From NCBI GenBank assembly GCA_963847445.1, contig CAWJZV010000025.1:1-64000 (forward strand): a stretch of DNA of 64,000 bases. The letters are read 5' to 3'. Source of the stretch: an uncultured delta proteobacterium. Its GTDB lineage: Bacteria > Desulfobacterota > Binatia > UBA9968. Made by a program: the position numbers and the translations under genes. Shown here piece by piece: positions 1-17,125 of this stretch; the stretch's first letter is position 1, and every line of letters begins with the position of its first letter. The notes beneath the pieces are model-generated. The model was not told the DNA's origin, searched no databases, and saw nothing but the letters and a program-made list of their open reading frames with translations.

Positions 1-26
1 GGAGAGGGGATAAGATCTTGAAATCG

Positions 27-895
27 CTATTTGCTGCGCGTTCCACGGCGGCTTCGATCGCCTTGCGCGCGTAAACGGTCGCGACATGGCGTTTGTACTC
101 GGCGCCGGCGTAGGAATCTTCCACCGGGTCGGTTTCTTCGGCGGCTTTGGCCGCCGCGGCCGCGATCGTCTGTGTCGTCAGCGGTTTGCCTTGCAGTTCC
201 AATTCCGTTGCGATGGCGCGGGCCGGGCCGCTGCCCAAGCCGCCGATGGCAATCCGCGAGGCCGTGCAGGTGCCGGAGGCTTGTCGCGTGATGATCGCCG
301 CCGCGCTGACGACCACATAGCCGGAGGCTGGGTGCGGCAGCTTGGCGTATGCGGTGCCGGTGCCAGCGGCCGGGATCGGCACGCGGATTTCCGTAAGAAT
401 TTCATTGGCCTTTAGCGCCGTGGTGTAAAAATCGGTGAAGAAGTCGTCGACGCCGATTCTCGTTTGCCCGACGCAGACTGGGCGATGAAGCTGGCATTGA
501 GCGCGGTTAGAACAACCGGCAAGTCTGCCGCGGGGTCGGCGTGGGCGACGCTGCCGCCGATGGTGCCGCGGTTGCGCACCTGCACGTCGCCGATCACCGC
601 GGCGGCTTCGGCCAGGGCGGGAACATGCTTGCGCACGAGGTCGGATGACGCGATATCGGCGTGAACCGTCAGTGCGCCGATCACTAGGCTGATTGCCGTC
701 GACGCTCACGCCGCGCAGACCCGGCACGGTGCCGAGGTCGATCAAAGTTTGCGGCGATTGCAGCCGGAGCTTCATCGCCGGAATCAAACTGTGGCCGCCG
801 GCTAGGAGTTTGCCATCCTCGCCGTGCTGCGCCATCAGTTGCAAAGCTTCTTCGACCGAGCGGGCCGCGACGTAGCCAAAATTAGCGGGAAACAT
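27..895 (-). CDS. coxM: Xanthine/CO dehydrogenase family FAD-binding (medium) subunit, frameshifted; 3' end approximate
   Basis: Manual translation from ATG 895: [18 protein letters not shown]...[17 protein letters not shown]; ORF 412..684 has [26 protein letters not shown]; C-terminal [13 protein letters not shown]; several frame switches. Confidence 0.85.
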
Positions 896-929
896 GGAGC
901 CTCCCTTGGATAGGCGGAGCCCTCAGGGC

Positions 930-960
930 AGGCGCGAGGCGTGAGGCATGAGTTCGGAAT
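930..960. repeat. 7-nt tandem unit (AGGCRYG x3) followed by TTCGGA
   Basis: aggcgcg aggcgtg aggcatg ag ttcggaat between coxS and coxM; unit similar to the one at 3216-3304. Confidence 0.55.
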
Positions 961-976
961 TTTCGAAGTTTCATGT

Positions 977-1486
977 TTATCTCCTCCTCCCTTCATTTTT
1001 TCTGCGGCCCATTTGATCGACTCGACGATATTGACGTAGCCGGTGCAGCGGCACAGGTTGCCTTCGAGGGCGTGCTTGATCTCGTCGTCGTTCGGATTGG
1101 GATTGGTTTCGAGCAAATGCACCGCGGTCATGATCATGCCGGGGGTGCAGTAGCCGCACTGCAAGCCGTGTTTCTCGCGGAAACCTTCCTGCACCGGGTG
1201 AAAGTTGTCGCCGTCGGCCAAACCTTCGATGGTTTTGACCTCGGCGCCGTTGGCTTGCACCGCCAGCACCGTGCAGGATTTCACCGCGCGGCCATTCAAG
1301 TGCACCGTGCAGGCGCCGCACTGACTGGTGTCGCAGCCGACATGGGTGCCGGTCAAATTCTAGATGCTCGCGTAAAAAATAAACCAGCAGCGTGCGCGGT
1401 TCGACCAGGGCGTCATGCTTGACGCCGTTGACCGTAATGGAAACCGGGAGCGCTGCGAACTGGGCCTCAGCAGCCATGCTTGTCAT
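977..1486 (-). CDS. coxS: (2Fe-2S)-binding small subunit of a CO/xanthine dehydrogenase family enzyme, frameshifted near 1357
   Basis: [28 protein letters not shown] joined to [17 protein letters not shown]...[11 protein letters not shown]...GNLCRCTGY. Confidence 0.9.
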
Positions 1487-1559
1487 TGCCTCCGTTGGTA
1501 TGTTGGTTGAACTGATTTCTAACCAGACTCTAGGGTGCAGAGAAATTCAGTCTGGCCAG

Positions 1560-1737
1560 TCATATACCGAGATCGACGCGGGCTCAAGAGCGGCCGCTGG
1601 TCAATTTGAAAGTTAAGGCGGTGAGTCCGAAGCTGGCGGAGCAGAAAATTGACGACGTGGCGGATCGAAGTTGGGTGCGCCGGCTCGATGAAAGCGGGTT
1701 CATCGACCGCGCGTACGCGGCGCAAGGCGTGAAGTAG
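1560..1737 (+). pseudogene. C-terminal remnant of an NMT1/SsuA-type solute-binding protein
   Basis: Manual translation 1612-1737 VKAVSPKLAEQKIDDVADRSWVRRLDESGFIDRAYAAQGVK* resembles the C-termini of the SBPs at 13951 and 16062; no upstream body. Confidence 0.55.
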
Positions 1738-1771
1738 TCACTAGGCCACAATGCAAAGGGGCGGAATGATT

Positions 1772-1885
1772 CACCACAGAGGGCACAGAGATCACAGAGG
1801 TCAAAATGCGGAGTCGAAGAATTGACCGCAAAGGCAAGAAAAATGAATTTCCGAACTTAGCGTCTTTGCGCCTTTGCGGGACAAT
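1772..1885. repeat. 9-nt-period tandem/inverted repeat cluster (CACAGAGnn; CGCAAAG / CTTTGCG)
   Basis: caccacagagggcacagagatcacagag; gaattgaccgcaaagg...ccgaacttagcgtctttgcgcctttgcggg. Confidence 0.6.
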
Positions 1886-1916
1886 CCTCCGAATGCGAAA
1901 GGATCCGAATCCTTCC

Positions 1917-3205
1917 TTACTGTTTCTCGTTCGATTGCAGCGCGTCGAGCGCTTGTTGGACGAGCTTGCGGCGCAGTTCTTTTTCGTCCTTCAGTGGCAG
2001 CTTGGCATCGCCGGTGACATGGACGATGCCGGTTCCTAGGACGACGCGGTTGGAACCGACCATTTTGGCGATGGGCAGCGCGGAGGTGATTTGCACCACT
2101 GGGATGCCGGCTTTTTCGAGTTCGGTGGTGATCGCAGCGCCGCTGCGAGTGCTGGTGCCTCAAGTTGACGTGAGGATCACCGCGTCGACGCCGTCGCGTT
2201 TGATCTTTCCGAGCCATTTCCCGTCCCAAACGGCGTGTGTTCGACAGCGGATTGGAGCGGCCGCAGGTGGAGAGAAACTCCTCGTGCAGTTTGCCGATGA
2301 CGCCGCTTTTTTCCAGCTCACGCAGAGCATCGAGAGGCACCAAGCGGTCGGGATCGTCCTGGACAAACCTGGTGTCGTAACCGCCGTGCGAGACTTCGTA
2401 GTCTTCGCTGCGTAAATCATCGCTGCCGGCGATATTGTAGGCGCCCCAGCGGGTCGCGGCGGTGCCTTCGATCTTGTCGGGATTGCCCTTGGGCACCAAG
2501 CCGCCGTCGGTGATGATCATCAGCTTGGCTTTCGACATGTCTTTGATCCGCGCAGGCATCGGCACGGGCGCGAACGCGGTCGGCAACATTTCCGATTCGA
2601 ACTTTTCGCCTTTCAATTTGGCGACGAGCATATCGACCATGCGCGTGGCGGCGGTCTTTTCGACCAGCTGGTCGCGCAACAGGCCGCGGCTGATATAGCC
2701 TTCCTCGCGCCGGCAGCCCGATGGGTTGCTTGGCCACGAGTTTCTTGCCGAGCTTTGCCATGGTGCGCGACGATATCGCGCATCTTGGCGATGTTGGTTC
2801 CCGAGTCGACGATGTGCAGCGTTTCGCGGTACAGATCGACGCCGGGATTTTCCACATGCATCGCCGTGATCGCCGGAATGGCCAACTCGCGATTGCACTG
2901 GCGCGTGCAGAGCGCGCCGGCGGCCATGCCGTAGCGCCCGGCATCGAAGCAGGGACCGGCGGCGAAGAGATCCGCTCCACTGGCGCGAATTTTCTCCAAT
3001 ACCGCCGCGGTTACTTGGTCTTGATGTTCGACGGCGTAATTATCGCCGCAGACGATCGTCAGGTTACCGCCGCATCATCGCCCATGAGTTGTTCGAACAG
3101 TTTCGCCGGCCCCAACGCGCCGTCGCGAAATTCCAATGACGCGCCGGCATGTTCTTCCGCGCCGATGCCGCCGAAAAATTGATTGACGTAGTAGACGATC
3201 TTCAT
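1917..3205 (-). CDS. grdB: Glycine/sarcosine/betaine reductase selenoprotein B family protein (Sec TGA at 2160-2162; several frameshifts)
   Basis: MKIVYYVNQFFGGIGAEE, AGPCFDAGRYG, ITDGGLVPKGNPDKIE, HGGYD...DPDRLVPLD, DGVDAVILTST-TGA-GTSTRSGAAITTELEKAGIPVVQI...VGSNR. Confidence 0.88.
2132..2148 (-). promoter_or_regulatory. Putative bacterial SECIS hairpin
   Basis: mRNA UGA + 11 nt + UCGCAGC-GGC-GCUGCGA: perfect 7-bp stem with a G-first loop, 17 nt in total. Confidence 0.7.
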
Positions 3206-3215
3206 GATTGACTCC

Positions 3216-3304
3216 TAGGCATGAGGCAATAGGCACTAGGCAACAGTAAGATTTAGGATGCTCGGAGTTTCTTACTAATGCCTATTGCCTCATGCCTATT
3301 GCCT
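3216..3304. repeat. Inverted repeat of 7-nt units between the grdE-like and grdB-like genes
   Basis: TAGGCATGAGGCAATAGGCA (3216-3235) is the exact reverse complement of 3279-3298; inner agtaaga/tcttact pair. Confidence 0.85.
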
Positions 3305-3307
3305 TCT

Positions 3308-4590
3308 TCAATACACTAACGATCTCATCCTCGACGCGCCCTGTTGATTGGTGACGCCGATGATGTTGTTGGCGTCGATGGTCATGGGTCCGACGAGCAG
3401 CTCGGCCAACTCCGGTTTGGCGGCGATGACGCGGGCGGCTTTGGGGATTTCGTACTTCGGTGCCGTTGCCGCCGTTGTAGACGATGGCGTTGACTTCCGG
3501 GACGTTGAACAAGAGCGCCGACTCGACGCGCCGGTCACGCGACACGTCGGAGACCATGACGGCGGTCTTGATGCCGGATCTGTTCCAACAAGCGCGCGGT
3601 TTCCGACAGGTCGGCGTGGGGCAGGCCGCCGCCGTACTTGGTCATCACGGCGCCGTCGGCGCGCAGGTTCCACTTGGCTAAATTCGCCGCAGCATGGCAT
3701 TGCCGTTCGCGGTCGACGTTATCGTTGCCGGCGACGGTGGCGACGGTGCCGACAAAGTTTATCTCGCGCGCTTGGTGGCGCCGGTAGAGATCGAGAATCA
3801 CCGGATGATTTTGATAAAAATAGGTCTCCGTGCCGCCGAACCAGGAGTTGAGCGACGGCACCAATGCGCCGTCGAGCCATTCGTCGGGATGTAAAATGAC
3901 CGGCAGCATGCCGTCGGTATTGGTTCCATAAATAATCGGCTCGTCGACCGCCGGCTTGCGCTGGCGCGAAAAAATCTGGCCGATATAGACGACGCGGGAC
4001 AATCCTTCGCGGCTTGTTGTCTTCGGCGCCGATGGGCTCGAATGTCTGTGTGGACGCCGGTGCTTGCGCAAGCGCGGCGCGGGCGAGATGCACGGCGACT
4101 TTGACGCCGGCGACGCGGTAGGCTTTTAACACCGCCGAGCGCGGCAACCCTGGTTTTGTCTGCGGTACCACCAGGAGATGACAAAGTTTTGAATATGCGC
4201 TGCCGGCGGTGGCGCTCGCCGCTCATCTCCAACACCCGTCCGGTGGCGCTGCGCGACGGGTCGGGGGACATTTCAGCGAAGACCGAAACCGCCGCGCCGG
4301 CGAGCACATGAGTCGTTCCCATCCCCGCGGTGGTCGGCGGCGCCGATGATGCCGGGAAAGTCGCTGCCGCCGTCGGCTTTGGCGCGCGGCTCGACGACAT
4401 CGAAGATCGGCCCGGCGCGGCAGCTCTCGCCGGGGCGGACGATGTCGAAAGCGACGTTATCGATGGCGGCATCTTCCAGTACCAAGCGGCGCAATTCCTC
4501 GCCATCGACCGTAAGCGCGCTGCCGTCGAGCGACAAGCGCGTGCCGAATTGAATGTCGGTGATTGGATGGACGGCAAGGGTGAGCTGCAT
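3308..4590 (-). CDS. grdE: Glycine/sarcosine/betaine reductase component B proprotein (GrdE/GrdG/GrdI family), frameshifted
   Basis: MQLTLAVHPITDIQFG...DIVRPGE...IFDVVEPRAK; LPVILHPDEWLDGA...YFYQNHPVILDLYRRH...INFVG; IIGVTNQQG C-terminus. Confidence 0.8.
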
Positions 4591-4735
4591 GCGACGATCT
4601 CCCGATCACAACTGATAGATCAAACTTCGATTCTAGGCAATCTATGTCCCGGCGCTTGCGCTTGTCAACTTGTAGTCGTGATTCACCTTGTCCCTTTCGG
4701 AGAAGGTCACAACCTCGCTCAGGTGAAGGAAGGTT

Positions 4736-4816
4736 GTCATGCCGGCGAGGCCGGCATCCATCTTCGCTTGTACTGCAGGCCGAGAAACCCTGGATTCCGG
4801 CCTGCGCCGGAATGAC
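4736..4816. repeat. REP-like inverted doublet (GTCATKCCGGC...GCCGGMATCCA)
   Basis: gtcatgccggcgaggccggcatcca ... tggattccggcctgcgccggaatgac. Confidence 0.75.
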
Positions 4817-4991
4817 GGATGAGGCGGCATCAGTCGACGATTCAGACACCTCGTTTTAAAGCCGAGGGGCAATCAGTTTCAGTAAATTCAGTGAACCGCC
4901 ACTGTCGGGGCGACTACGGTGCGCCTACAGTGACTGGTTCCGACCTTCGTCGCCGGTGCAAAGGTGCAGATCCACGAGGTCATTCAAAACC

Positions 4992-6486
4992 ATGATCCGT
5001 TTCTCGCCGCTTCCTAACCAAGCTCATATCATCCCCTGGCAGGAATGGGGCGACGCGGCCTTTACGCGCGGCCCACGCCGAGGACAAACCGGTGATGCTT
5101 TTCTTGTCGGCATTCTGGTGCCGGTTCTGCCAGCGCATGGATGAGCAAGCATTTTCTGAGACCGAAAACATCGCGCTGCTCAATGCTTACTTCATTCCAC
5201 TGCGGGTCGAGTATACGCAGCGTCCCGACGTCGACGCGCGTTACAACTTGAACGGCTGGCCGACCATCGCCTTCATGACGCCCGCTGGGCAGTTGCTCGC
5301 GGCCGTCAATTATTTGCCGGCGGATCAGTTCAAAGAATTGCTCATCGACGTGTACATGAGCTACCAGCAGCGCAAAGACGAGCTTCGTGGCGCGGCGCAG
5401 AACTACGGAAGAGAACGCCTGAGCCGGCGCGACAGCTGGCCGATTCGGAGTTGGCAACGAATCTAGCGGCGATCACCGAGAGCGTGATGGCGCTGGCGGA
5501 CCGTACCTATGGCGGTTACGATCGCGGGCAGAAATTTATCCATCCCCAAGTTAATGATTTTTTGCTGGCGCGCTATCAAGCGACCCACGACTCGCAATAT
5601 CTCGATCAGGTTTGTCTGACTCTCGAGCGCATGCGCGCCGGCGAGCTTTACGATCATCAAGGCGGCGCCTACTTTCGCACTTCGTCCAACCCGGACTGGA
5701 GCCATCCGCACCGGGAAAAATTGCTGTTGGAAGAGGCCGGGTTGTTGGCCAATTGCTTGTCGGTTTTTCGTATCACGCAGCGGGCGGAATACCGGCGCAT
5801 GGCTGAGGAGATCATTGAGTACTTGGATGCCAGGCTTTTCGATCCGGCGAGCGGAACTTTCCACGGCTGCGAAGATTGGTTGCGTTATGAACCGCCGGCC
5901 GTTGATGGCGAGGAATTCTTCACGATCATCGATCGCTGCGTTTACACCGACGCGAACGCGGTTGCCAGCGCGGCGTATCTCGATGCTGCGGTGCTATTGG
6001 ACAAGCCGGCTTACCGCGAGCGAGGGCTCGCCGCGCTGGAGTTTCTCTGGCAGAACTGCCGCAGCGACGGCGGCGGGATGTTTCACTACTTCGACGGCGC
6101 GGCGCATGTGCCGGGGCTACTGCAGGATCAAGCGCAGATGGGCAGCGCGTTGTTGCGCGCCTACCAAGTGACGGGAGATGGTGCATACGTGGATCGGGCG
6201 CGACGGTTGGCCGAGTTCATATTGACAGAACTGAAAAGCCCGAGCGGCGGTTTCTACGATATTTGCACGCAGGATTCGGCTGCGCTCAAGGCTTCGACTC
6301 ATTTTGATAGAACAGAACGGCGCCGCGGCTTCCTTCTTTCTCTCATTGGCTCAAGCGACGAAGGACGCCAAGTATCGCGACGCGGCGCGCTGGGCGCTAT
6401 GTGCATTCGTCGGTGATTTTAACCAGTACGGCGTTCACGCCGCGCCGTTCGGAAATGCGCTGGCGCAACTCCGAGGACTGGAGTAA
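4992..6486 (+). CDS. DUF255 thioredoxin-domain protein with alpha/alpha barrel (YyaL/SSP411-like), frameshifted
   Basis: IPWQEWGDAAF, DKPVMLFLSAFWCRFCQRMD, RPDVDARYNLNGWPTIAF, LYDHQGGAYFR...WSHPHREKLL, GLLQDQA, GGFYD. Confidence 0.85.
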
Positions 6487-6556
6487 ATGGAAGTGATGGA
6501 GTAATGGAGTGTTGGGAGGACCGAAGAACCCAGTACTCCAGTACTCCATCACTCCA
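6479..6556. repeat. Inverted repeat of ~8-nt units (TGGAGTRW) between convergent genes
   Basis: gtgatggagtaatggagtgttggg ... cccagtactccagtactccatcactcca; half copy at 29090-29125. Confidence 0.8.
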
Positions 6557-6564
6557 ATTCCCCG

Positions 6565-8098
6565 TTATCCCCTTATCTTCATCTCCACCGCGAGGATGCG
6601 GTTGTCGGGCGTGCCTTTCCAGATGACATTTCTCGCGACACCGTAAATTTCCGAGAGCGTGTAGAGCGGCACGAAGGGCGCGTCTTCCATGATCAGGCGG
6701 CCAGCTTGCTGCAAGATCGCCACGCGTTTTTTCTGATCGGCGGTGCGCTGTTGCTCTTCGATGAGTTTGTCGAGCTTCCGGGTTGCTGTAGCCGATGCGT
6801 TTGGTGATGCCGGTGTGAAAGTATTGATCGTAGAAAGTGTCGGCGTCGGAGGCGGTGCGGCCGGCGTAGTAAAAGGGCAGCTTGCCGCCGTTGACGCCAT
6901 CCTTGCCCCAGTAGACGGCGTACTCCTGGCCGACCAATTCGATTTTGATGCCGACTTTTGCCAACTGATCGCCGATCACTTCACAGACTTCCCGGCCCTT
7001 GAGATGGCGGTCGGGCGAGAAATGCAGCTTGATTTCGAAGCCGTTTGGATAGCCCGCCTGGGCGAGCAGCTCGCGGGCTTTCTTGGGATCGTGGGCATAG
7101 CGTTTCATCGCCGGGTCGAAGCCGGTCATGTTCGCCGCCAGCGGGCCGTTGAGCACTTGGCCGTTGCCGGAAAAGACATGTTTCATTATCGGCGCTGGAT
7201 CGATGGCGTGGTTGACCGCTTGGCGCACCAACTTGTTGTCGAAAGGCTTATGGGCGACGTTCATCGCGACGAAATACATGCGAAAGCCGGGAATCTTCTC
7301 GACCCGGACGCGCGGATGTTTCGCTACTCGATCGATTTCTTCGATGGGCAGGTTGCTGACCACGTCGGCCTGGCCTGACAGCAGACCGGCGACCCGCGCC
7401 GCCTCTTCTTTTACGCCTCTCAAGATGACTTCCTTGATCTCCGCCTTGGCGCCCCAGTAGTCGTCGTTGCGCGCCAAGACCAGGTTGCCGCCGCGCTGCC
7501 AGCTGACAAATTTATAGGGACCGGTGCCGATGGCGTAGTTGTCGGCCTGGTCGCCGTATTTTTCCGCGGCGGCTTTGCTGATGATATAGCGTGTGTCCAG
7601 GCGGTCGAGCAGCAGCGAGAGCGGCTGCTTGGTGTTGAAAACCACGGTGAAATCGTCGGGCGTTTCCACTTCTAACTCCAGGATGTCGCCGCCCTGAAGG
7701 CTGCGCTTGTCGGTTTTCATGCGCTCGATGGAATAGGCCACGTCTTTCGAGGTTAACGGCGCGCCGTTGTGAAAGCGGATGTTTTTTCTGAGCTGGAAAA
7801 TCCAGCGTCGTCCTTGGAATTCCCATGAGTCGGCGAGCACGCCGACATATTTTTGCCGGGTGTAGTCCATGACGATCAGCGGCTCGATCAGATGGAGCCA
7901 GATGCCGTTGATGCCGCCGCCGCTGTAGCCGTAGGGATGGAGCGAGTCGAGGCTGACGCCTTGATAGATGACGACTCGCTCTCTGGACGCCGCGAGCGCA
8001 TTCCCTCCAAGGGCGGGCCCGATCAGAGCCCCGAGGCCGAGGGTGGTACTGTGTTGAAGAAAGCGCCGGCGACTTATGTTGGTTTCTTTGCTAGCCAT
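6565..8098 (-). CDS. ABC transporter substrate-binding protein, family 5 (peptide/nickel), Tat signal; frameshift near 6780
   Basis: SRRRFLQ Tat motif, LRKNIRFHNG, IGTGPYKFVSW, KPFDNKLVRQA; C-terminus continues in ORF 6565..6900. Confidence 0.9.
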
Positions 8099-8177
8099 GG
8101 CAGTGCTCCTTTGATTGTTGTTCTTTAGTGCTTAGCGCGAATGGGTGTTGTTGCTGTGCAAGCGCGCCCCGCCACCC

Positions 8178-8285
8178 AGGGCGTATGCCATACGCCCCTA
8201 CATCGGATTTCTCCCGAAATCTCTGTTCTATGCGTCGCTCAGTTCCTTCGCATTCGCTCAGGACAGCTTTGCGGCCAATTCTCTT
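8178..8285. repeat. GTAG-type REP-like hairpin plus degenerate CTTTGCGGCCAATTCTC repeat
   Basis: agggcgtatgccatacgcccctac (reverse GTAGGGGCG...); ctttgcggccaattctc is the reverse complement of gagaattggccgcaaag at ~53403-53419. Confidence 0.6.
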
Positions 8286-8425
8286 GTCCGCTTATAGCAC
8301 CAGCGCTGCTCGCACGGCAAAGTGATTTTTATCGCAGTCGCTTGGCTAATCGGCGTTAGCTTGACACAATGGCGCCAGAGTTATTATGACCGAACAGGCG
8401 CTCTCGACCTAAGCGAGGTGTTGGC

Positions 8426-9709
8426 ATGGACATCAAATCACTCGTCGACCCGGAAGGCGGTCTCATCGATCGGCGGATCTTCGCCGACCGGGAGATCTAC
8501 GATTTGGAACGCGAGCGTATCTTTGCGCGCTGCTGGCTTTACCTTGGCCACGAGTGTGAGATTCCCAACCCCGGCGATTTCGTCACCCGCTACATGGGCG
8601 AAGACCCGGTGATTCTAGCGCGCGACTTAAACGGCCAACTGCGCGCGCATTTAAACATGTGCCGCCATCGCGGCAATCGGGTGTGCCGCGCCGACCGCGG
8701 CAATACCAAATTATTTCAATGCTCGTATCATGGCTGGTCATACACCACCGACGGCAAACTCGCGCTGGTGCCGATGGTCGACACCTTCGGCAATCTCGAT
8801 CGCTCGCAGTGGGGCTTGGTTTCGGTGGCGCAGGTCGACAGTTACAAGGGACTGATCTTCGCGACCTTCGATCCCGAAGCGCCGCCACTGCGCGACTATC
8901 TCGGCGACATGGCCTGGTATTTGGACATTCTCCTCGACCGCCGCGAGGGCGGCACGGAGGTAAGCGGGCCGCAGCGCTGGGTAGTCGACGCCAACTGGAA
9001 GACCGCCGCGGAAAATTTCGGCGGCGACGGTTACCACATCGCCTCGACTCACGGCTCGGCGCGCGAGTTGGGCATCGACACGACCACCAGCAAAACCCGC
9101 CAATGGAACAAAGGCTGTCAGATCGCCTGCGACAACGGCCATATTCTAGTTTCCTGGCTGACGCCGCCGGACAGCGGGCCGTGGTTTGCTCAGCCGGATG
9201 ATCAGCTCGCCGACTACATGAAAGAGCATGAAGTTGAAATCGAAAGCCGTTTAGGAACCAAGCGGGCGCGGCAGATTTCCCCGTCGGCGGGAACGGTTTT
9301 CCCCAATCTCTCGGTGCACTGGCTGACGCGGACGATTCGCGTCTGGCAGCCGCGCGGGCCGGACAAGATGGAGATCTGGAGTTGGGCGATCGTCGACAAG
9401 GCGGCTTCGCCGAAGATCAAGGATGTCATGCGCTTCGTGGCGCAGTACCGTTTCAGTCCGTCGGGAGTCTTCGAGCAGGACGACATGGACAACTGGATTC
9501 AAGTCACCGGCGCGGCGCACAGCCTGATCGGCCAGCGCTTTCCGGCCAACTATCAGATGCGCGGCAACGAGCCGCCGGTGGAAATCGATCTGCCGGGACG
9601 CGTGAAAAGCCGCTTCAGCGACAACAATCAGCTAAGCCTGTACATGCACTGGGCCAAGCTGCTGCAAGCGAACAATTGGCGCGAGGTTGCGAACGCGTCC
9701 AATGGATAG
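8426..9709 (+). CDS. Aromatic ring-hydroxylating dioxygenase alpha subunit (Rieske; biphenyl/phenylpropionate-type)
   Basis: CRHRG...CSYHGW Rieske motif; NWKTAAENFGGDGYH...TH; FEQDDMDNW. Confidence 0.95.
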   Translation: MDIKSLVDPEGGLIDRRIFADREIYDLERERIFARCWLYLGHECEIPNPGDFVTRYMGEDPVILARDLNGQLRAHLNMCRHRGNRVCRADRGNTKLFQCSYHGWSYTTDGKLALVPMVDTFGNLDRSQWGLVSVAQVDSYKGLIFATFDPEAPPLRDYLGDMAWYLDILLDRREGGTEVSGPQRWVVDANWKTAAENFGGDGYHIASTHGSARELGIDTTTSKTRQWNKGCQIACDNGHILVSWLTPPDSGPWFAQPDDQLADYMKEHEVEIESRLGTKRARQISPSAGTVFPNLSVHWLTRTIRVWQPRGPDKMEIWSWAIVDKAASPKIKDVMRFVAQYRFSPSGVFEQDDMDNWIQVTGAAHSLIGQRFPANYQMRGNEPPVEIDLPGRVKSRFSDNNQLSLYMHWAKLLQANNWREVANASNG

Positions 9710-10212
9710 CCAGCTGCGCCACCAAGTCGAGGATTTTTATTACCTCGAAGCCGAGCTGCTCGACGAGCGCAAGCTGCGCGAGTGGTTCGAGCTGCTGGCC
9801 GAAGATATTCGCTACTGGATGCCGCTGCGGCACAACACCGCTGGAGCGGCCTGAAAGCGTCAGCGAAGAGCTGTCCCAGCCCGGCGACGCCTATTATTTC
9901 GACGACGATTGGCAGAGTTTGAAGATCCGCGTCGAGCGCGCCTATTCGAAGATCGCCTGGGCGGAAGTGCCGCCGTCGCGCACGCGCCACCTGATTACCA
10001 ACATCCGTATTAAGAAAGACGACGGCGAGCAAATCGAAGCCCATTCGAATTTTCTCGTCTACCGCACGCGCCAGGAAAGCGACAAGGATATCTTCGTCGG
10101 CACGCGCCAGGATACTCTGCGGCGCGCCGGGGCGAGCTTCAAGATCGCCCGGCGCACGATCATCCTCGATCAGGCGGTGCTGGACGCGAAGAATATCAGC
10201 GTGTTCTTGTAG
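9702..10212 (+). CDS. Aromatic ring-hydroxylating dioxygenase beta subunit, frameshift near 9838
   Basis: MDSQLRHQVEDFYYLEAELLDERKLREW...RYWMP joined to WAEVPPSRTRHLITN...KIARRTIILDQAVL. Confidence 0.9.
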
Positions 10213-10294
10213 ACCTCCGCGCGCTTATGTTCGATTCACCGGCAATCTGATCAAACATTATCAAGGGAAAGTAATTTTCTCACGGTTTGGGTGT

Positions 10295-10525
10295 TTAGTG
10301 CACATGATCGTCCGGCGCGGCAGCGCGCGGCTTTTCATTCCTGAGTAACTCTACTTGCGACAGAAGACCTGCGATTTTGCTCCAAGCTTCGCTCTCGGCG
10401 GGCAACCAGCGGGCGCGGATGTAGCCTTGTTTGTCGATTAGAAATTCGACATGGGGTGTGGTTGTGATCAGGTTTTCATCACTAAACGAGCGAGCGAACA
10501 GTTTATAGGTTTCGGTGATTTCTCT
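10295..10525 (-). pseudogene. C-terminal redoxin-like fragment, resembling the tail of CopD/cytochrome c fusion proteins
   Basis: ITETYKLFARS...HVEFLIDKQGYIRARWLP...PDDHVH*; the upstream part of the ORF does not look protein-like. Confidence 0.5.
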
Positions 10526-10694
10526 AATTCCTTTGTTGCGCGCCCGCCGGTTCGCTATGTATGTGTACGAATGTTGTTTGGCATACCGCCCTATCGGGTT
10601 GGTGTCAATTGAAAGTTGGGATCTCGCACACAAAGCCAATTGCCAAATCAAGGAATTCCGATTAGCGTGCGCTCAACGGAAAGGGGCGACGATC

Positions 10695-11681
10695 ATGAAG
10701 CCTGTTTCACGGTATTTCTTGTGCTTGGTGTTGTGCTGGCATATGCAGGGGGCAAATGCGTCGGCCGAGCCGCTGGTGGTCGGCTACTCCGCTGTGAGTT
10801 CGGTGTTCTTGCCGTTCTGGATCGGCAAAGAAGCGGGGTTTTACAAGAAAGAAGGCCTCGACGCGCAGCTCGTCTACATCGCCAGCTCGACGACCATGGC
10901 ACAGGCGATGTTTGCCCGCCAGGTGGCGATCTCGTCGGTCAATAGCGGCAGCGTGGTCACCAGCACGCTTCAGGGCGGCGAACTGGTGCTCATGGGCGCG
11001 GTGATGAATGTGGCCGGATTTTACATCATGACTCGGCCGGAGATCGCCAATGTCCAGGAGCTGCGCGGCAAGAAAATTGGCGTCACGCGCTTAGGCTCGT
11101 CTTCGGATTTCGCCGTGCGCGAATATCTGCAAAGAAATAAGCTGAATCCCAGCCGTGACGTTAACATCGTCCAGATCGGCGGCATGCCGGAATTGGCCGC
11201 GGCGTTGAACAATGGCTCGATCAGCGCGGCGCCGTTGTCGGCGCCGAGTTTCCATATCGCCGAACAACGGGGAAACCGGATCATCGCCAACCTCGCGAAC
11301 GAAGGAATTTACTTTGTCATCGCCGGACTGACGACGACGCGCCGCTATCTGCGCGAGCAACGCGGCGAAGCCAAAGCTTTTCTGCGCGCCTTTGGCCGCG
11401 CCACCCACTTCATGTTTCACCAAAAGGACGAGGCGAAAAAGCTCTTGACCAAATATGCCAAGATCGATGACGCCGGCACGCTCGAAGGCAGCATGAAATA
11501 CGCCTATGACTTTACCGAAAAGATTCCCCTGGTGAAACGTGAAGGCGTGCAAGTGGTGCTCGATCAAGAGGCGGCGAAGATTCCCCAGGCGAAGGATTTC
11601 ACCGCCGAGCGATTCTACGACAACGGTTTGGTGCAAGAGCTTATCAACGAAGGGTTCTACAAATCGCTTTGGGGTAAGTGA
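10695..11681 (+). CDS. NMT1/SsuA-type ABC substrate-binding protein
   Basis: Signal peptide, GFYKKEGLDAQLV, LRGKKIGVTRLGSSSD, IVQIGG. Confidence 0.9.
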   Translation: MKPVSRYFLCLVLCWHMQGANASAEPLVVGYSAVSSVFLPFWIGKEAGFYKKEGLDAQLVYIASSTTMAQAMFARQVAISSVNSGSVVTSTLQGGELVLMGAVMNVAGFYIMTRPEIANVQELRGKKIGVTRLGSSSDFAVREYLQRNKLNPSRDVNIVQIGGMPELAAALNNGSISAAPLSAPSFHIAEQRGNRIIANLANEGIYFVIAGLTTTRRYLREQRGEAKAFLRAFGRATHFMFHQKDEAKKLLTKYAKIDDAGTLEGSMKYAYDFTEKIPLVKREGVQVVLDQEAAKIPQAKDFTAERFYDNGLVQELINEGFYKSLWGK

Positions 11682-11693
11682 AAGGGAGTTTGG

Positions 11694-12734
11694 ATGAACG
11701 CGAGTTATGCACCGATCGATGCCGACGGCCATGTGATGGAGACCGACGACGAACTGCGCCGCTATTTACCGGCGCCGTTCGAGGGGCGGCGCGCGCTAAC
11801 CGCGCTGTTTCCATCCCTCGACGGCTGGCCGCGCAGCACGCGCAAGGCGCCGGACCCAACGCCTTGTTTAGAAAGGTGGCGGATGTTTCTCAATGCCTCC
11901 GGCGTGGCGGGCTCGGTGCTTTATCCGACAATGGGTCTGGCCATGGCGCATATCAAAGACGTCCAATGGGCGACGGTGATGGCGCGCTGTTACAACGACT
12001 ATCTTTACGGCGAATTTCTCGCCCAGGAGCCAGAGCGGCTGTGGGGTGTGGCTTTGCTGCCGATACAAGATGTCGCAGCGGCAGCCGACGAACTTGAACG
12101 CTGCGTCAAGGATTTGCGAATGGTCGGCGGGGTGATTCCTGCCGTCGGTTTGTCGAAAGGGCTCGGCCATCCGATGTACGATCCGCTCTATCGAACCGCT
12201 GTGCGGTTGAACGTGCCGCTGGCGGTGCATGGCGGATCGAGCGCGGGTCTTGGCCTGGATATTCTTGATTCGTTCGTCAAGATTCTCGTCCTTGAACACG
12301 CTGTGGCGCAGCAGATTCATTTTACCAGTTTTCTCCTCGACGGCGGGCCGGTGCGTATTCCCAATCTTAAAATCGCTTTCCTCGAAGCCGGCGTTGGCTG
12401 GGTGCCTTATTTGATGGAACGACTCGACGAAAAATATGAGAAGCTGCCGCACCAGGCGCCGCTCCTGACCAAAGCGCCGAGCGAATATGTTCGGGACGGC
12501 TCGATCTATTTTTCCTGCGAGCTAGAAGAAAAGATTCTTTCTTATGTCATCGGCCTGGGCTTGGAAAAACAGATCATGTATCCGTCGGACTTCCCGCACG
12601 AGCGGCCGACTCTCGAACAGTTTCTCGCCGACATTCCGCACTTCCAGGCGCGCGAGGATCTGTCGGCGCCGGTAAAGAAATTAATTCTGCGCGACAACTG
12701 CATCGATTTTTACTCGTTAAGTTTGGCGAAGTAA
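11694..12734 (+). CDS. Amidohydrolase_2 family protein
   Basis: [31 protein letters not shown]. Confidence 0.9.
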
Positions 12735-13510
12735 GTGGGAACTGTGGAACCCAAAGTCATATTGGCGCGGCCGGACGATCACCGCGGCATTCTCTGCCTG
12801 CAAGAAGCGGTGGATGCGATGTTAGAGGCATTTCGCTATTGGGCGCGCGACCCGTTGGTCGCCGAGCTGCGCCGGCGCACGCATACGCCAAAGACGTGCG
12901 CATCACGCTGCATCAAGGCGCGGCGCCCGGCTTCGGTACCACCGGCATGATGGGGCACGCCGAGCTGGTGCGCATCTTTGGCAACATCCAGAAATATCCG
13001 CGTCGCGGCCGGCCGGTGCTGGTGCTTTACGATGCCTACGGCGTCGAGACCAAAGCACTGAACCGAGCTCATGCTCGTAATCGCGAGCGTTTCCCGCAGG
13101 ACTTTGCCTTTCAGTTAACCGAAAAGGAGTTCGTTGACTTGAGGTGCCAATTTGGCACCTCAAGATGGGGAGGGCGCCGCTATCGACCCTATGCTTTCAC
13201 CGAACAGGGGGTCGCGATGCTATCGGGGGTCTTGCATAGCCGGCGCGCCGTTCAAGTCAATGTCGCGATTATGCGGACCTTCGTACGGCTGCGCCAACTG
13301 TTGGCGTCAAACGCCCGCTTGGCGCGCAAGCTGGAAGAGATGGAAGAAAAATACGATAGCCAGTTCAAAATCGTATTCGACGCGATCCGAGAGCTGATGA
13401 CACCACGGAACCCAAGAAACGGCGGATCGGCTTTCTCGTCGGCGAACGACCGGCACCCTATGGTAAAGCACGAAGCAAAGCAGTTCAGTAGATCTTTAAT
13501 TGTTCATTAA
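12735..13510 (+). pseudogene. Chimera: ornithine cyclodeaminase/mu-crystallin N-terminus fused to an N-truncated ORF6N-domain protein
   Basis: [10 protein letters not shown]...[13 protein letters not shown]...PVLVLYDA | [25 protein letters not shown]...[19 protein letters not shown]...[10 protein letters not shown]; junction ~13036. Confidence 0.7.
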
Positions 13511-13528
13511 CTGAACGGAAAGGAATCA

Positions 13529-13954
13529 ATGATAATGTCTATCGATGGAGTTCGTTTTGGCCATGTGGCCTTTAAAGTTGCGGATGTGGAAAAGAGCATT
13601 CGCTGGTACGGCGATGCGTTCGGCGCCAAGGTGATCTATCGCGTCGAGCCGAGCGGCGAGCGGCCGGAGCTGATGTTCTTGGAGTTTTCCAAAGGACAGT
13701 GCGTCGAGCTTTTCCCCGGCGGCAAAAACATGTTGGCGTCGCCGCCCGATCCGATCGGCTACATTCATTTCTGTCTGGTGCTCGATAATCTGGAGCAGGC
13801 ACTGGAGCATCTGGCCAAGATGGGTGTGAAGCCCGATCGCAAATTCATCGGCCGCGCCAAGCAGCGCATCGCGTTTGTCTCCGATCCCGACGGTAACAGT
13901 ATCGAGCTGATGGAAATTCCACCGGAGTCGGAGATCTACCGAACCTATCCGTGA
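13529..13954 (+). CDS. VOC/glyoxalase family protein
   Basis: GHVAFKVADVEKS, HFCLVLD, FVSDPDGNSIELME. Confidence 0.9.
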   Translation: MIMSIDGVRFGHVAFKVADVEKSIRWYGDAFGAKVIYRVEPSGERPELMFLEFSKGQCVELFPGGKNMLASPPDPIGYIHFCLVLDNLEQALEHLAKMGVKPDRKFIGRAKQRIAFVSDPDGNSIELMEIPPESEIYRTYP

Positions 13955-14928
13955 TGCCAATGTTTTTGCGACTCTGTGTCTTGCTCCTGCTGTTGGTTTG
14001 GGCTGGTGAAATGCCGGCGCAGACCGCGGGCGCGCGCAAGGCGCCGGTGCGAATCATCTACAGCGCGCTCACGGCGTCAAACGGGCCGGTGTGGGTTGCT
14101 GCCGATCAGGGACTTTTCGAGAAATACGGTCTCGATGTCCAGATCGTACACGGCCGCGGCGCTTCGCCGATCCAAGCGCTGGCCGGCGGCACCGTCGAGT
14201 TGGGCCACTTTGCCGGCGCGTCAGTGATCTCGGCCAATCTCGGCGGCAGCGATCTGGTTTTTGTCGCGGCGCAGACCAATTACGTCGTGCTGTCGATTTG
14301 GACGCGCAAGGATTCGCCGATTAAAACGCTCGCGGACTTGGCCGGGAGAAGCATCGGCGTGAGCGCGCCGGGCTCGGCGACACACACGACGACGCGAGCG
14401 GCGCTGCGCAAGGCCGGGATAGCGGACAAGGATATGAAATTCGTCCATCACGGCGCGCTGCCGGAGATTTTCGTTTCATTGGACAAGGGGTTGGTCGACG
14501 CCGGCGTTGCCTCCGCGCCCCGCCCCGCTTTTCGTGAGCTCGTCGATCTGGCGACGCAGAGGATTCCGTTTCTCCAAGGAGCGATCATCGTCAACCGGAG
14601 TTATCTCCAACGTGAACGGCCGGTGCTGCTGAATTTCTTAAAGGGCTTCGTTGAAGCGATGAAACTGGTGCGGGAAAAGCCGGAGGTGGTGACCGCCTCG
14701 CTGATGAAGCATCTGCGCATCCCACAGGAGATTGCCCGCGGAGCGTATCGTTCGTTCGTCAATGTCTGGGAGGAAGTGCCCTATGTGCGCGCCGAGTCGG
14801 TGCAGGCGATTCTGGATTTTCTGCCGAAGGAGCAGGTGAAAGACATCACGCCGGAAAAATATATCGACAACAGTTTGATTCGGGAGTTGGAAACGTCTGG
14901 TTTCGTCAAGAATCTCTACCGCAAATAA
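13951..14928 (+). CDS. NMT1/SsuA-type ABC substrate-binding protein
   Basis: Signal peptide, WVAADQGLFEKYGLDV, IKTLADLAGRSIGVSAPGS. Confidence 0.9.
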   Translation: MMPMFLRLCVLLLLLVWAGEMPAQTAGARKAPVRIIYSALTASNGPVWVAADQGLFEKYGLDVQIVHGRGASPIQALAGGTVELGHFAGASVISANLGGSDLVFVAAQTNYVVLSIWTRKDSPIKTLADLAGRSIGVSAPGSATHTTTRAALRKAGIADKDMKFVHHGALPEIFVSLDKGLVDAGVASAPRPAFRELVDLATQRIPFLQGAIIVNRSYLQRERPVLLNFLKGFVEAMKLVREKPEVVTASLMKHLRIPQEIARGAYRSFVNVWEEVPYVRAESVQAILDFLPKEQVKDITPEKYIDNSLIRELETSGFVKNLYRK

Positions 14929-14936
14929 ATCTTCGC

Positions 14937-16018
14937 TCAATAGGGTTCGAAGTCGCGCAAAGCCGGCAGGACTTCGCTGCCGAAGAGTTTGATCGAGCGC
15001 ATTAAATCTTCTTCTGCGATGGCGCCGATGTTGAACTCGGCCATGACGGTGTTGAATACGCCCTCGCTGGCCGCTTGCTTGATCTGTTCGATGACAGTTT
15101 TCGGCGAGCCGACAAAGGCTAAGTTGCTGTTCTCGCAAATATTCGACGTCGATCGAGTGGCGCGCGATCTCGGCGCCGCGGGGATTGCCGCGTTTCTCGT
15201 GGTTCTCGGCAAGCCGCTGGTAGCCGATGCCACCGTCCGCGCGGGTGCCAAAGACATTGGTGAAACAGTGCTCGAAATAGGGTTTAGCTTTCGCCACGGC
15301 TTTGGCGTCGGTCTCATCGACGTAGACTAACACCCAGTAACCGATATTCGGCTTGCCGGTGTGGCCGCGCGTCACGCCATAAGCGCAAATATTCGCGATA
15401 GCGCGGCGCAACCTCGTCGCGCGGCACCAAGAAAAGATACCCCGTATGGACGCCTTCGCGGGCGAGGAGCGCCAGAGTGTCGGCGTCGCGCGAATGAATC
15501 CAAATCGGCGGATGGGGCTGTTGGAGCGGCTTAACCCCGAGCGTGACGTTTTGGTACTGGTGAAATTCCCCGTTGAAGCTGAACGGCCCCTGGCTCGACA
15601 GCGCTTGTTTGATGCAGAGCAGCGCTTCGTGAGTGAGCGCGCGGCGATTATTAAAATCAGCGCCGTAGGGTCCGAAGAAGTCGGGCACAATGCCGGAGAC
15701 GAGTCCCAGTTCAAACCGGCCATTGGCGAGGTTGTCCAGCACCGCGGCGTCTTCGGCGATACGCAACGGATCGTAAAGCGGCGCGATATTGCCCATGGTG
15801 CCGACGCGCAGCCGTCGGGTATGGGCGGCCGCCGCGGCGCAGTAAATCGACGGCGACGGCATCCAGCTTTCGCGCGGATTGAAGTGATGCTCGACGCAAA
15901 AGCCATAGTCAAAACCGAGTTCGTCTGCCGCTGCTAATTCGCGCCACAGTTGCTCGTAGCGCTCCGCCGCGTTCATACCGGGCTTGTTCCAAACATGAGA
16001 GAAGTGGGCGAATTTCAT
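14937..16018 (-). CDS. LLM class flavin-dependent oxidoreductase, frameshifted
   Basis: ADELGFDYGFCVEHHF, PLRIAEDAAVLDNLANGRFELGL, KPLQQPHPPIW, VGSPKTV...SIKLFGSEVLPAL. Confidence 0.9.
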
Positions 16019-16061
16019 GGCAGTCCGTATCGACCTTTTGGCGTTGACTCGGCAAATTCGC

Positions 16062-17060
16062 TCAACGTTTCTTGTAGAGGCTATCGGTATAACCGCTCAG
16101 ATCCAATTCTTTCACGAAGCTGGCGTCGAAATAGTCCTCGGGATTGTGCGACTTGGCTTTCGGCTCTGAAGCGAGGATGGTTTTCAGACCTTCGACGGAC
16201 GGATATTGCTTTCTCGGCAGTACCGCTTCACTGATTAAATTTTCCCAGGTTTTTTCCAAGACATCGCGCTCGACGGTACGGCCGATAAATCGCCCCAAGG
16301 CTCGGATGGCGCTTTCTTTGTCGGTGTAAATACGATGGACGGCTTCGATTTGAGATTTTACATAGCGCCTAACGACATCGCGATTTTCTCGAATATATTT
16401 TTTGGTCGTGGCGACGGCGGTGTGTTGATAGACAAGTCCAAGCTTGGGCAGATCGGCGAGAGTGTTCATGCCGCGCTTTTGCGCGATGATACTGGCCGGC
16501 GGATTGACCACGGTGGCTTGCACGCGTCCGGCGAGCACCGCGTCGACGCGCGCCGTGGTGCTGCCGATCTGCACGATGGTGACATCTTTGCCGGGCGTCA
16601 GGCCAATCTTCGTCAGCGCGTAGCGGGCGATAAAGTCAGATGACGAGCCGAACCGGCTGATCGCCACCGAGCCGCCCTTCAGCTGCTCGGGAGTTTTTAT
16701 CTCCGGCCGGCTTAGCAGGTAATAGTTTAGCGAGATGACGCCGCCGGCGACGATGGTCGCATCGGAACCCGCCATGACGGAATTCACTACCGCGGGCCCG
16801 GCCAACTGCGCGATCGGCGTATCGGCTGAGACCAGCGCCATGATCGCGGTGGTGCCGCCGGCGAAGAAAACCGCTTGAACGTCGAGGCCATTTTTTTCAA
16901 AGATACCGGCGTCTTTGGCCAGCCACGCCGGCAGCGCATCGCCGCTGATGGCGCTGTAGCCGACGTTGATTTTCGTCAGTTGCGCCTGCGCCGATTGAGC
17001 TAAGACGGTGAATAGCGCCACGGCAGGAATGATTCGCGCAAAGCTTTTCAATCTAAGCAT
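16062..17060 (-). CDS. NMT1/SsuA-type ABC substrate-binding protein
   Basis: Signal peptide, AKDAGIFEKNGLDV, ISRFGSSSDF, YPSVEGLK. Confidence 0.9.
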   Translation of the reverse strand: MLRLKSFARIIPAVALFTVLAQSAQAQLTKINVGYSAISGDALPAWLAKDAGIFEKNGLDVQAVFFAGGTTAIMALVSADTPIAQLAGPAVVNSVMAGSDATIVAGGVISLNYYLLSRPEIKTPEQLKGGSVAISRFGSSSDFIARYALTKIGLTPGKDVTIVQIGSTTARVDAVLAGRVQATVVNPPASIIAQKRGMNTLADLPKLGLVYQHTAVATTKKYIRENRDVVRRYVKSQIEAVHRIYTDKESAIRALGRFIGRTVERDVLEKTWENLISEAVLPRKQYPSVEGLKTILASEPKAKSHNPEDYFDASFVKELDLSGYTDSLYKKR

Positions 17061-17125
17061 ATGAAGAACCTCGACGTGTTAGTTTTTCTCCAGGCAACTC
17101 AAGGGCGGTCATGAAAACGACCTGC

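Follow-up and report, generated by a model that had tools for sequence, protein, structure and literature searches.

We analyzed a 64,000-nucleotide stretch of DNA (hereafter, the window; positions 1 to 64,000 of contig CAWJZV010000025.1, assembly GCA_963847445.1) from an uncultured delta proteobacterium, and focused on two neighboring genes near its start, both on the minus strand, that resemble the two subunits of protein B in glycine reductase-type systems. The host genome is a Binatia-type metagenome-assembled genome (MAG) with a completeness of 91.8% and a contamination of 6.9%. A gene for a GrdB-like selenoprotein B is located at 1917-3205 (PF07355 and TIGR01918; ~427 codons in intact orthologs), and a grdE-like partner gene at 3311-4590 (PF09338 on its pieces; 426 codons in intact orthologs). 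The grdE-like gene is broken by insertions, and the grdB-like frame is distributed over the pieces 3062-3205, 2769-3071, 2708-2767, 2251-2706, and 1920-2237. Every grdB piece of at least 48 amino acids (aa) matches both PF07355 and TIGR01918 in the Pfam and NCBIfam profiles, each above the cut-off. We consider it likely, with a probability of roughly 75%, that the window encodes two subunits (one GrdE-like, the other a GrdB-like selenoprotein) of a substrate-specific protein B belonging to a glycine reductase-type system in a Binatia-type host.

The final 106-codon fragment of the grdB-like gene is the only part that reads through an in-frame TGA uninterrupted in the window. This TGA, at 2160-2162, occupies the conserved selenocysteine (Sec) position of the family and is read here as Sec. 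The protein runs ...GVDAVILTST-U-GTSTRSGAAITTELEKAGIP... and ends with ...SNEKQ before the stop codon at 1917-1919. The glycine, sarcosine, and betaine reductase B selenoproteins carry TSTUGTCTRC, and the canonical system needs GrdA, GrdC/D, and thioredoxin. Here the TGA is followed by G-T-S-T-R-S-G, with two Ser codons, both AGC (2151-2153 and 2142-2144), replacing Cys. The original prediction for this locus had reported the TGA, the two AGC codons, the position of a downstream hairpin, and an STCGRSN segment in the GrdB-like protein, and all of these were found as stated. It had also described a frame that continues to a normal C-terminus, which is true of the last fragment; about 12 single-base insertions and deletions (indels) that break both genes had been overlooked.

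The Ser-for-Cys replacement is real, and both it and the TGA are conserved in the two sets of loci that were compared. In the first set, 37 of 41 related genomes had a match to the C-terminal GrdB fragment, nearly all with exactly one TGA; the tallies over these relatives include the unpublished genome G005, and row L024 is part of the motif and covariation counts, though no claim hinges on G005. The sequence ILTST-U-GTSTRSG was present in 29 of the 30 retained loci of relatives (the 30th is a partial match beginning past the Sec site), and the orthologs are open frames of 428-468 aa, uninterrupted except for one TGA. The second, wider set comprised 80 loci from a scan with one genome per species and spanned Candidatus Binatia, uncultured delta proteobacterium, Dehalococcoidia/SAR202, Rokuibacteriota/Methylomirabilia, Syntrophobacterales, Nitrospinota, Acidiferrales, and others. 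The TGA was present in 79 of these. Their post-Sec motif was UGTSTRSG at 64 loci, UGTSTRCG at 11, UGSSTRCG at two, UGTGTRCG at one, and the canonical UGTCTRCG at one (L139). The UxxCxxC motif after Sec, by which selenoprotein B is recognized in the accounts given by PMC6778437 and PMC13188914 (both citing Wagner 1999), is replaced by UGTSTRSG in the window, in 29 of the 30 relatives' loci, and in 64 of the 80 wider loci; L139 is the sole wider locus with UGTCTRCG.

Gene callers terminate at the Sec codon. In the database scan, 7998 candidates were scored and 6147 proteins reached E ≤ 1e-10; the 120 best matches all end at or near this codon, 117 of them being exactly 346 aa long. Were the UGA an ordinary stop, the 346-aa product would be the protein and the downstream frame would be untranslated. 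However, the 80 codons past the UGA are conserved as protein (up to 97% identity) and align with the C-terminal end of the family models, and the covariation of the downstream hairpin and the complete Sec machinery in the genome (both described below) also speak for read-through. We find an ordinary stop hardly credible.

The hairpin resembles a selenocysteine insertion sequence (SECIS) and is located at 2132-2148 on the minus strand (UCGCAGC-GGC-GCUGCGA, 17 nucleotides, with a stem of 7 base pairs and a GGC loop). It starts exactly 11 nucleotides past the UGA, with the spacer at 2149-2159; the minimal E. coli fdhF SECIS is a 17-nucleotide hairpin 11 nucleotides after UGA. The likeness to the fdhF-type element lies in a stem-loop at a short fixed distance past the UGA and in the G residues of the apical loop, and the differences are the short perfect 7-bp stem, the 3-nucleotide loop, the absence of a bulge, and the location wholly inside conserved codons. 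The 17 nucleotides are identical in 24 of the 29 relatives' loci with the motif. Within the stem, the synonymous sites of CGC, AGC, GCU, and GCG are invariant among the relatives, and nearly all flanking third positions vary.

Covariation was evaluated with 100 distinct 72-nucleotide segments (700 pair cells). The stem positions were paired in 96.9% of the cells, compared with 12.9-57.4% in the slid-partner controls, and 27 cells carried double changes, a number that was reached by none of 500 shuffles. At the second Ser position the changes are compensatory: Cys UGC goes with Ala GCA, and Ser AGC with Ala GCU. Covariation was supported at three pairs, namely 28-36 (83 AU, 16 UA, and 1 UG), 27-37 (90 CG, 6 UA, and 3 UG), and 24-40 (76 UA, 4 GC, and 20 unpaired), and RNAalifold recovered the inner six base pairs unaided. 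An outer helix of the single-sequence fold was set aside, as its codons vary among orthologs. A UGA followed by a conserved, covarying hairpin is what the locus and its relatives carry, and the predicted SECIS-like element behaves like a SECIS; it is the comparative conservation and covariation, and not the folding energy, that place the hairpin beyond chance. Stem-loops at the same place, each with its own compensated pairs, were also seen at the other GrdB loci of this genome (on contigs C24, C42/C32, and C4).

The window copy is interrupted by frameshifts. Compared with four orthologous copies, grdE has single-base insertions near 4339, 4217, 4016, 3577, and 3455, and grdB has a single-base deletion near 3061 and single-base insertions near 2904, 2898, 2890, 2765, 2708, and 2213, which adds up to ~12 indels over 2.7 kb. 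Contigs from four unrelated public runs (at least 88% likeness) omit bases 2213, 2708, 2765, 2889, 2899, and 2903, as well as 3455/3458, 3576, 4016, 4217, and 4339. A 12-aa grdE piece (4162-4197) was rejected as spurious by ortholog comparison, and the density of open frames along the window was discarded as a proxy for error density, being too noisy in GC-rich DNA. The run search listed no RNA dataset with the window sequence (best word share 0.23). One run, X20, has a metatranscriptomic label and was flagged as 'probably DNA'; its contigs cover parts of grdB at ≥88%, and it was not counted as evidence.

The indels could also be real, in which case the window copy would be a decaying pseudogene, redundant beside its duplicate elsewhere in the genome. 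The window begins at a contig end, and its positions 1-4686 share 89-93% identity with the terminal part of contig C17 (G000:C17:209320-216153), where a second, 92.7% identical GrdB copy is located. The genes from ~6.4 kb onward have long single open frames, which also fits local decay. Against decay, the C17 copy is frameshifted too, at other places, and the flanking CoxM/CoxS-like genes, the DUF255 gene, and the unlinked selA, selB, and grdC are equally broken; because these flanking and unlinked genes are affected, the errors are not specific to grdB and grdE. When the window is placed in the frame of its orthologs, third codon positions account for 96 of 131 differences to one ortholog and 107 of 145 to another, with 90 synonymous versus 29 non-synonymous codons for the first and 98 versus 35 for the second, a pattern of purifying selection. 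A duplicated contig end in a MAG with such contamination is, moreover, a setting prone to polishing errors. The GrdB loci on C42 and C32 are near-identical as well, and together with the C17 duplication and the contamination this resembles two co-binned strains and not true paralogs. Such strains probably explain both the assembly break and the indel errors. A decaying pseudogene appears quite unlikely to us, and the indels are most likely assembly or polishing errors introduced where near-identical sequences were co-binned, judging from these sequence comparisons.

The GrdE partner adjoins grdB in 76 of the 80 wider loci, and differs from canonical GrdE at the site from which the pyruvoyl group is formed. 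In C. difficile GrdE, this group derives from the Cys at residue 242, as described in the relevant part of PMC9908766. The GrdE of the canonical-type locus L139 has SGN-CVSAC at the aligned site, versus SYYTS, SYNTS, or SLNSW in the GrdE of the loci without the Cys residues after Sec (hereafter, the Cys-less clade). These proteins have no conserved Cys or Ser at the self-cleavage site, where a pyruvoyl proprotein would be expected to have Cys. They scored 172 bits with the GrdG model NF040793 (cut-off 780) and 137.9 bits with the FarE model NF053623 (cut-off 675).

The GrdB-like proteins are likewise distinct from the named subgroups. Intact orthologs scored 465.5 and 488.6 bits with the family model TIGR01918 (cut-off 65.45), and fell below the cut-offs of the equivalog models for GrdB (TIGR01917, 425.6-446 bits versus 602.2), GrdF (NF040794, 477-481 versus 800), and GrdH (NF040795, 437-442 versus 775), as well as that of the PrdB model (82-87.5 versus 300). 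The canonical control L139 passed TIGR01917 at 647.2 bits. No GrdI model gave a match in the profile library searched, and no solved PDB structure matched GrdB or GrdE by sequence (E ≤ 0.01). The window protein has SHGGYDT-x8-RLVPLD, close to the first half of the motif AHGGxD[QTAP]x8RV[IL]PxD...TxGNxTxV that is given for GrdB in PMC9751293, but STCGRSN where TxGNxTxV is expected, and it has no TTGTGT, the GrdF motif in the same source. Other members of the clade carry STCGRSN, STSGLSN, and similar segments instead of either.

In a maximum-likelihood tree of 74 rows (a quick search only, with ~8 short or N-terminally incomplete rows dropped), 60 UGTSTRSG and two UGTSTRCG sequences formed one clade with a support of 100 by the Shimodaira-Hasegawa-like approximate likelihood ratio test. 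The variable residue of the motif GPxF[NDE]AGRYG is Cys (GPCF) in 87 of 88 UGTSTRSG rows as well as in the two UGTSTRCG rows of the same clade, and the remaining 12 of the 14 non-UGTSTRSG rows have GPAF or GPVF. In the window, the GPCF of GPCFDAGRYG, with this clade-specific Cys, is at approximately 2949-2960 on the minus strand (codon positions inside the piece 2769-3071). The clade spans several phyla and is defined by U-G-T-S-T-R-S-G, by the cysteine of GPCF, and by a GrdE partner in which the pyruvoyl-forming Cys is missing.

A DUF255/Thioredox_DsbH gene (4992-6486, plus strand) is located next to the module in divergent orientation. It is frameshifted in the window, matches PF03190 in its orthologs, and encodes FWCRFC, a CxxC motif, at 5113-5130. 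The protein is ~500 aa long with an invariant FWC-x-x-CQRMDE, and occurs beside the module in three arrangements and several phyla. It was found in the flanks of 29 of the 64 UGTSTRSG loci versus none of the 15 Cys-bearing loci.

The machinery for Sec incorporation is complete in the genome. A selA-selB-selD cluster is located on contig C14 (G000:C14:191492-195726; L009, L043, and L050), and a tRNA-Sec on C2. The selD gene has an in-frame TGA, indicating that SelD itself contains Sec, and selA and selB are split by frameshifts or TAG, in line with the genome-wide assembly errors. The genome also encodes a GrdA (C4:214454-214882, 171.9 bits) with one TGA in the context ...ECFV-U... (CxxU), which adjoins GrdC (NF040746, in two frameshifted pieces). 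There are six GrdB-family loci of four types, five of them beyond the window copy, and eight GrdE-family loci. The GrdB types are UGTSTRSG (window and C17), UGSSTRCG (C24), UGTGTRSG (C42 and C32), and UGTCSRSG (C4); four post-Sec motifs thus occur in one genome, and canonical UxxCxxC is among none of them. The same 34 of the 41 relatives have GrdA and GrdC (30 of the GrdC matches are above cut-off), almost always in single copy, versus 3-6 GrdB loci per genome, and two relatives without a GrdB match (G010 and G033) have both.

The module had been predicted to be an orphan, acting as a stand-alone C-N-cleaving selenoenzyme with no need of GrdA, GrdC/D, or thioredoxin. The window does lack grdA, grdC, and grdD, as had been noted, and the sole GrdA and GrdC matches of the genome sit on another contig. 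GrdD was not found in the host genome or its 41 relatives, and some relatives have GrdB with GrdA and GrdC undetected (5 of 37), which would also suit an orphan. Against this, GrdA and GrdC are encoded in the genome, with further GrdB loci beside the window copy, and the same GrdB type is clustered with both elsewhere: 26 of the 80 wider loci have both grdA and grdC in their 6-kb flanks, and 19 of these loci are UGTSTRSG (19 of 64), in Binatia, Dehalococcoidia/SAR202, and an Acidiferrales MAG. Typical gene orders are grdC-grdA-grdE-grdB, as in the Binatia genome G029 and the Acidiferrales MAG, and grdA-grdC divergent from grdE-grdB, as in Dehalococcoidia and SAR202. One GrdA and one protein C serving several substrate-specific B modules is, in the part of PMC10838667 that deals with it, a known architecture. 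The 'orphan' and 'stand-alone' labels were therefore dropped, and we judge such an enzyme to be very improbable. The rest of the original prediction, a UGA-recoded selenoenzyme of the GrdB/GrdE family in a non-clostridial host, agrees with our results (the related records are Candidatus Binatia or uncultured delta proteobacterium). A complete grdA, grdC, and grdD set with a canonical GrdB had been named as the outcome that would speak against it; GrdA and GrdC are present, GrdD was not found, and the protein falls short of a canonical GrdB score.

With regard to the redox partner, the DUF255 CxxC gene adjoins the module, and a classical thioredoxin with a TrxB-like gene was seen only at the Cys-bearing locus L137. 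There (L137:86-8448, UGTSTRCG), the cluster comprises hydantoinase B, thioredoxin, grdC, grdA, grdE, grdB, and the TrxB-like gene, with a Liv-type ATP-binding cassette transporter adjoining, and could fit, as we speculatively assume, a route from creatinine or N-methylhydantoin to sarcosine. A hydantoinase B gene is also located 8 kb from the G004 ortholog (L061:18110-19822). Two-gene grdC-grdA units occur in G038 and G015 without GrdD alongside (L154:6430-10105 and L155:7398-9294); the GrdC open frame in G038 is 1042 aa long, with no assignment for its N-terminal half. Beside the G029 cluster, at this one locus only (L082:8136-10191), we observed a radical S-adenosylmethionine/DUF3641 gene and a gene with a formylglycine-generating enzyme (FGE)-sulfatase domain, the latter split in two. 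A passage of one paper speculates on a conversion of the Ser in STUG to formylglycine.

Several observations weigh against a functional protein B module of the kind proposed here. The evidence is DNA sequence throughout, and the window copy is untranslatable as it stands. No sequencing run contains the exact window sequence (best share of sampled words 0.23), so assembly error is a probable and not a certain reading. By energy alone, the hairpin does not stand out (z = 0.31; 115 of 200 shuffles fold equally well), and no Rfam family matched it (1600-5000 searched, E ≤ 1). Among the 37 genomes that match GrdB, five (G001, G009, G020, G021, and G032; 65-95% complete) show neither GrdA nor GrdC. 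The host genome gave no match to GrdD (protein C alpha, NF040747), and none of the 41 relatives exceeded the cut-off, the best hit there (28.8 bits) looking PlsX-like; because GrdD was not found, the canonical acetyl-phosphate step cannot be assumed, and the last step may not be canonical phosphorolysis. Both the GPCF and the DUF255 association follow the clade, whose members are not independent samples, and relatedness alone could yield them. Finally, in so distant a phylum, a score below the equivalog cut-off is still compatible with glycine.

The GrdB/E, GrdF/G, and GrdH/I systems of Clostridia and relatives share with the clade a two-gene module of PF09338 and PF07355/TIGR01918, Sec in a ...TST-U-G... 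context with a SECIS hairpin directly downstream, and a GrdA (CxxU) and GrdC common to several B modules. The clade differs in having UxxSxxS, the additional GPCF cysteine, scores below the cut-offs of all three equivalogs, and no GrdD found, and in occurring outside Clostridia, with Binatia, Dehalococcoidia/SAR202, a Nitrospinota MAG, and others as its hosts in soil, sediment, and sea water. Among the E-type subunits of Grd systems, its GrdE resembles only GrdI in lacking the pyruvoyl-forming Cys; as stated in the passage of PMC10838667 on these proteins, GrdI and FarE are without processing cysteines and are not proproteins. FarB is described there as having no CxxC, so that FarBE of Synergistota is one described precedent for a protein B without CxxC and processing cysteines, and is likewise thought in this account to feed GrdA and a common reductase. 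The clade is nonetheless distinct from FarBE in its FarE score, phyla, and habitats, and no farA antiporter or farC radical S-adenosylmethionine gene was detected among the annotated neighbors of clade loci. The PrdB selenoprotein of D-proline reductase (PrdA/PrdB) is homologous, and its model matches the C-terminal half, yet with scores far below the cut-off; PrdB is ~240 aa long and PrdA is a pyruvoyl proprotein.

The proposed mechanism follows the Grd model (Andreesen 2004, as summarized in PMC13188914, PMC9908766, and PMC10838667). By analogy, Sec would attack the alpha-carbon of an X-CH2-COO- substrate held by GrdE and GrdB, expelling X; the carboxymethyl group would then move to the Sec of GrdA as a carboxymethyl-selenoether, and GrdC would turn it into an acetyl thioester. 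The CxxC past Sec has been described, in the sections of PMC10838667 and PMC6778437 that mention it, as shielding Sec from oxidation and possibly contacting GrdA. In the clade, the GPCF cysteine and/or the neighboring CxxC-bearing DUF255 protein would take over these roles.

The lineage's own glycine reductase protein B, with glycine as the substrate and diverged motifs, would accord with the current annotations. Of the B modules, this one is most often clustered with grdC-grdA (19 of 64 loci), the source annotations say glycine reductase, and SHGGYD[PT]-x8-RLVPLD is near the corresponding part of the GrdB motif as printed in PMC9751293. Yet the TIGR01917 scores fall well short of a cut-off that L139 passes, TxGNxTxV and UxxCxxC are both absent, and Cys is missing from the GrdE site at which the pyruvoyl group for glycine and sarcosine is formed. 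Glycine is in our view a doubtful substrate. Because the clade is without CxxC and apparently without a pyruvoyl group, a substrate that does not need a pyruvoyl Schiff base is the most likely kind, and by analogy with betaine (GrdHI) or fluoroacetate (FarBE) we see an even chance that the substrate is such a compound and neither glycine nor sarcosine. The suggestion in the original prediction that the enzyme acts on another substrate is plausible in this respect, with the glycine, sarcosine, and betaine equivalog cut-offs all missed. A fuller version would make the UGTSTRSG/GPCF clade a separate, environmentally abundant, non-glycine system, in which no pyruvoyl group is used, the Cys has been relocated to GPCF, DUF255 is the redox partner, the carboxymethyl group is passed to GrdA/GrdC, and the thioester is resolved without GrdD (e.g., to acetyl-CoA and not acetyl phosphate). 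Taken as a whole, that version is speculative and we rate it as unlikely.

The surroundings of the module contain additional features. A palindromic insert in the grdE-grdB spacer (3216-3304; 24-nucleotide arms, 96% complementary) has little counterpart in the spacers of the orthologs, and resembles a short repeat that has been inserted. Downstream of grdB, frameshifted genes for the FAD-binding (2-895) and 2Fe-2S (~838-1486) subunits of a molybdenum hydroxylase are encoded on the minus strand, in an arrangement that is syntenic in a genus relative. The intergenic stretches 1753-1881 and 4734-4878 have 75-96% identity to many other contigs of the genome, like dispersed repetitive extragenic palindromic (REP) repeats, and one such stretch holds a 10-nucleotide perfect inverted repeat (1826-1835/1870-1879). 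On the other side, the region 6422-17989 encodes an SBP_bac_5 binding protein, a Rieske ring-hydroxylating oxygenase alpha subunit, several NMT1-like binding proteins, an Amidohydro_2 protein, and a member of the PEP-mutase/isocitrate-lyase family, and is also syntenic with the genus relative. Amidohydro_2 and PEP_mutase genes likewise follow the SAR202 cluster (L148:7983-10811).

Previous knowledge covers the gene family, the Sec codon, and the NCBI family-level name. In a literature search whose scope left out subscription journals and supplements, we found no description of the multi-phylum UGTSTRSG/GPCF clade with its non-pyruvoyl partner, nor of its link to DUF255 or the absence of GrdD in its lineages. 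The clade is very common, yet without both chemical hallmarks of the characterized enzymes, UxxCxxC and the pyruvoyl-forming Cys. Its proteins are named 'glycine reductase' or 'betaine reductase' in databases, and grdB is used as a metagenomic marker for glycine reduction and the reductive glycine pathway, as noted in part of PMC11784365. Should the enzyme act on something other than glycine, the pathways inferred for Binatia, SAR202/Dehalococcoidia, and other lineages would have to be revised. In the relevant section of a study on a dichloromethane fermenter (PMC6778437), a missing UxxCxxC in one B component was read as the sign of a pseudogene; the conservation of the motif-less form across the relatives and the wider loci argues that protein B genes without UxxCxxC can be functional. 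The clade is also a natural experiment on the purpose of the CxxC beside Sec. If the fuller version is true, largely aerobic soil and marine bacteria (Binatia, SAR202, and Nitrospinota) could cleave a quaternary amine or other substituted acetate, for example betaine to trimethylamine, which would feed the methylotrophy of Binatia.

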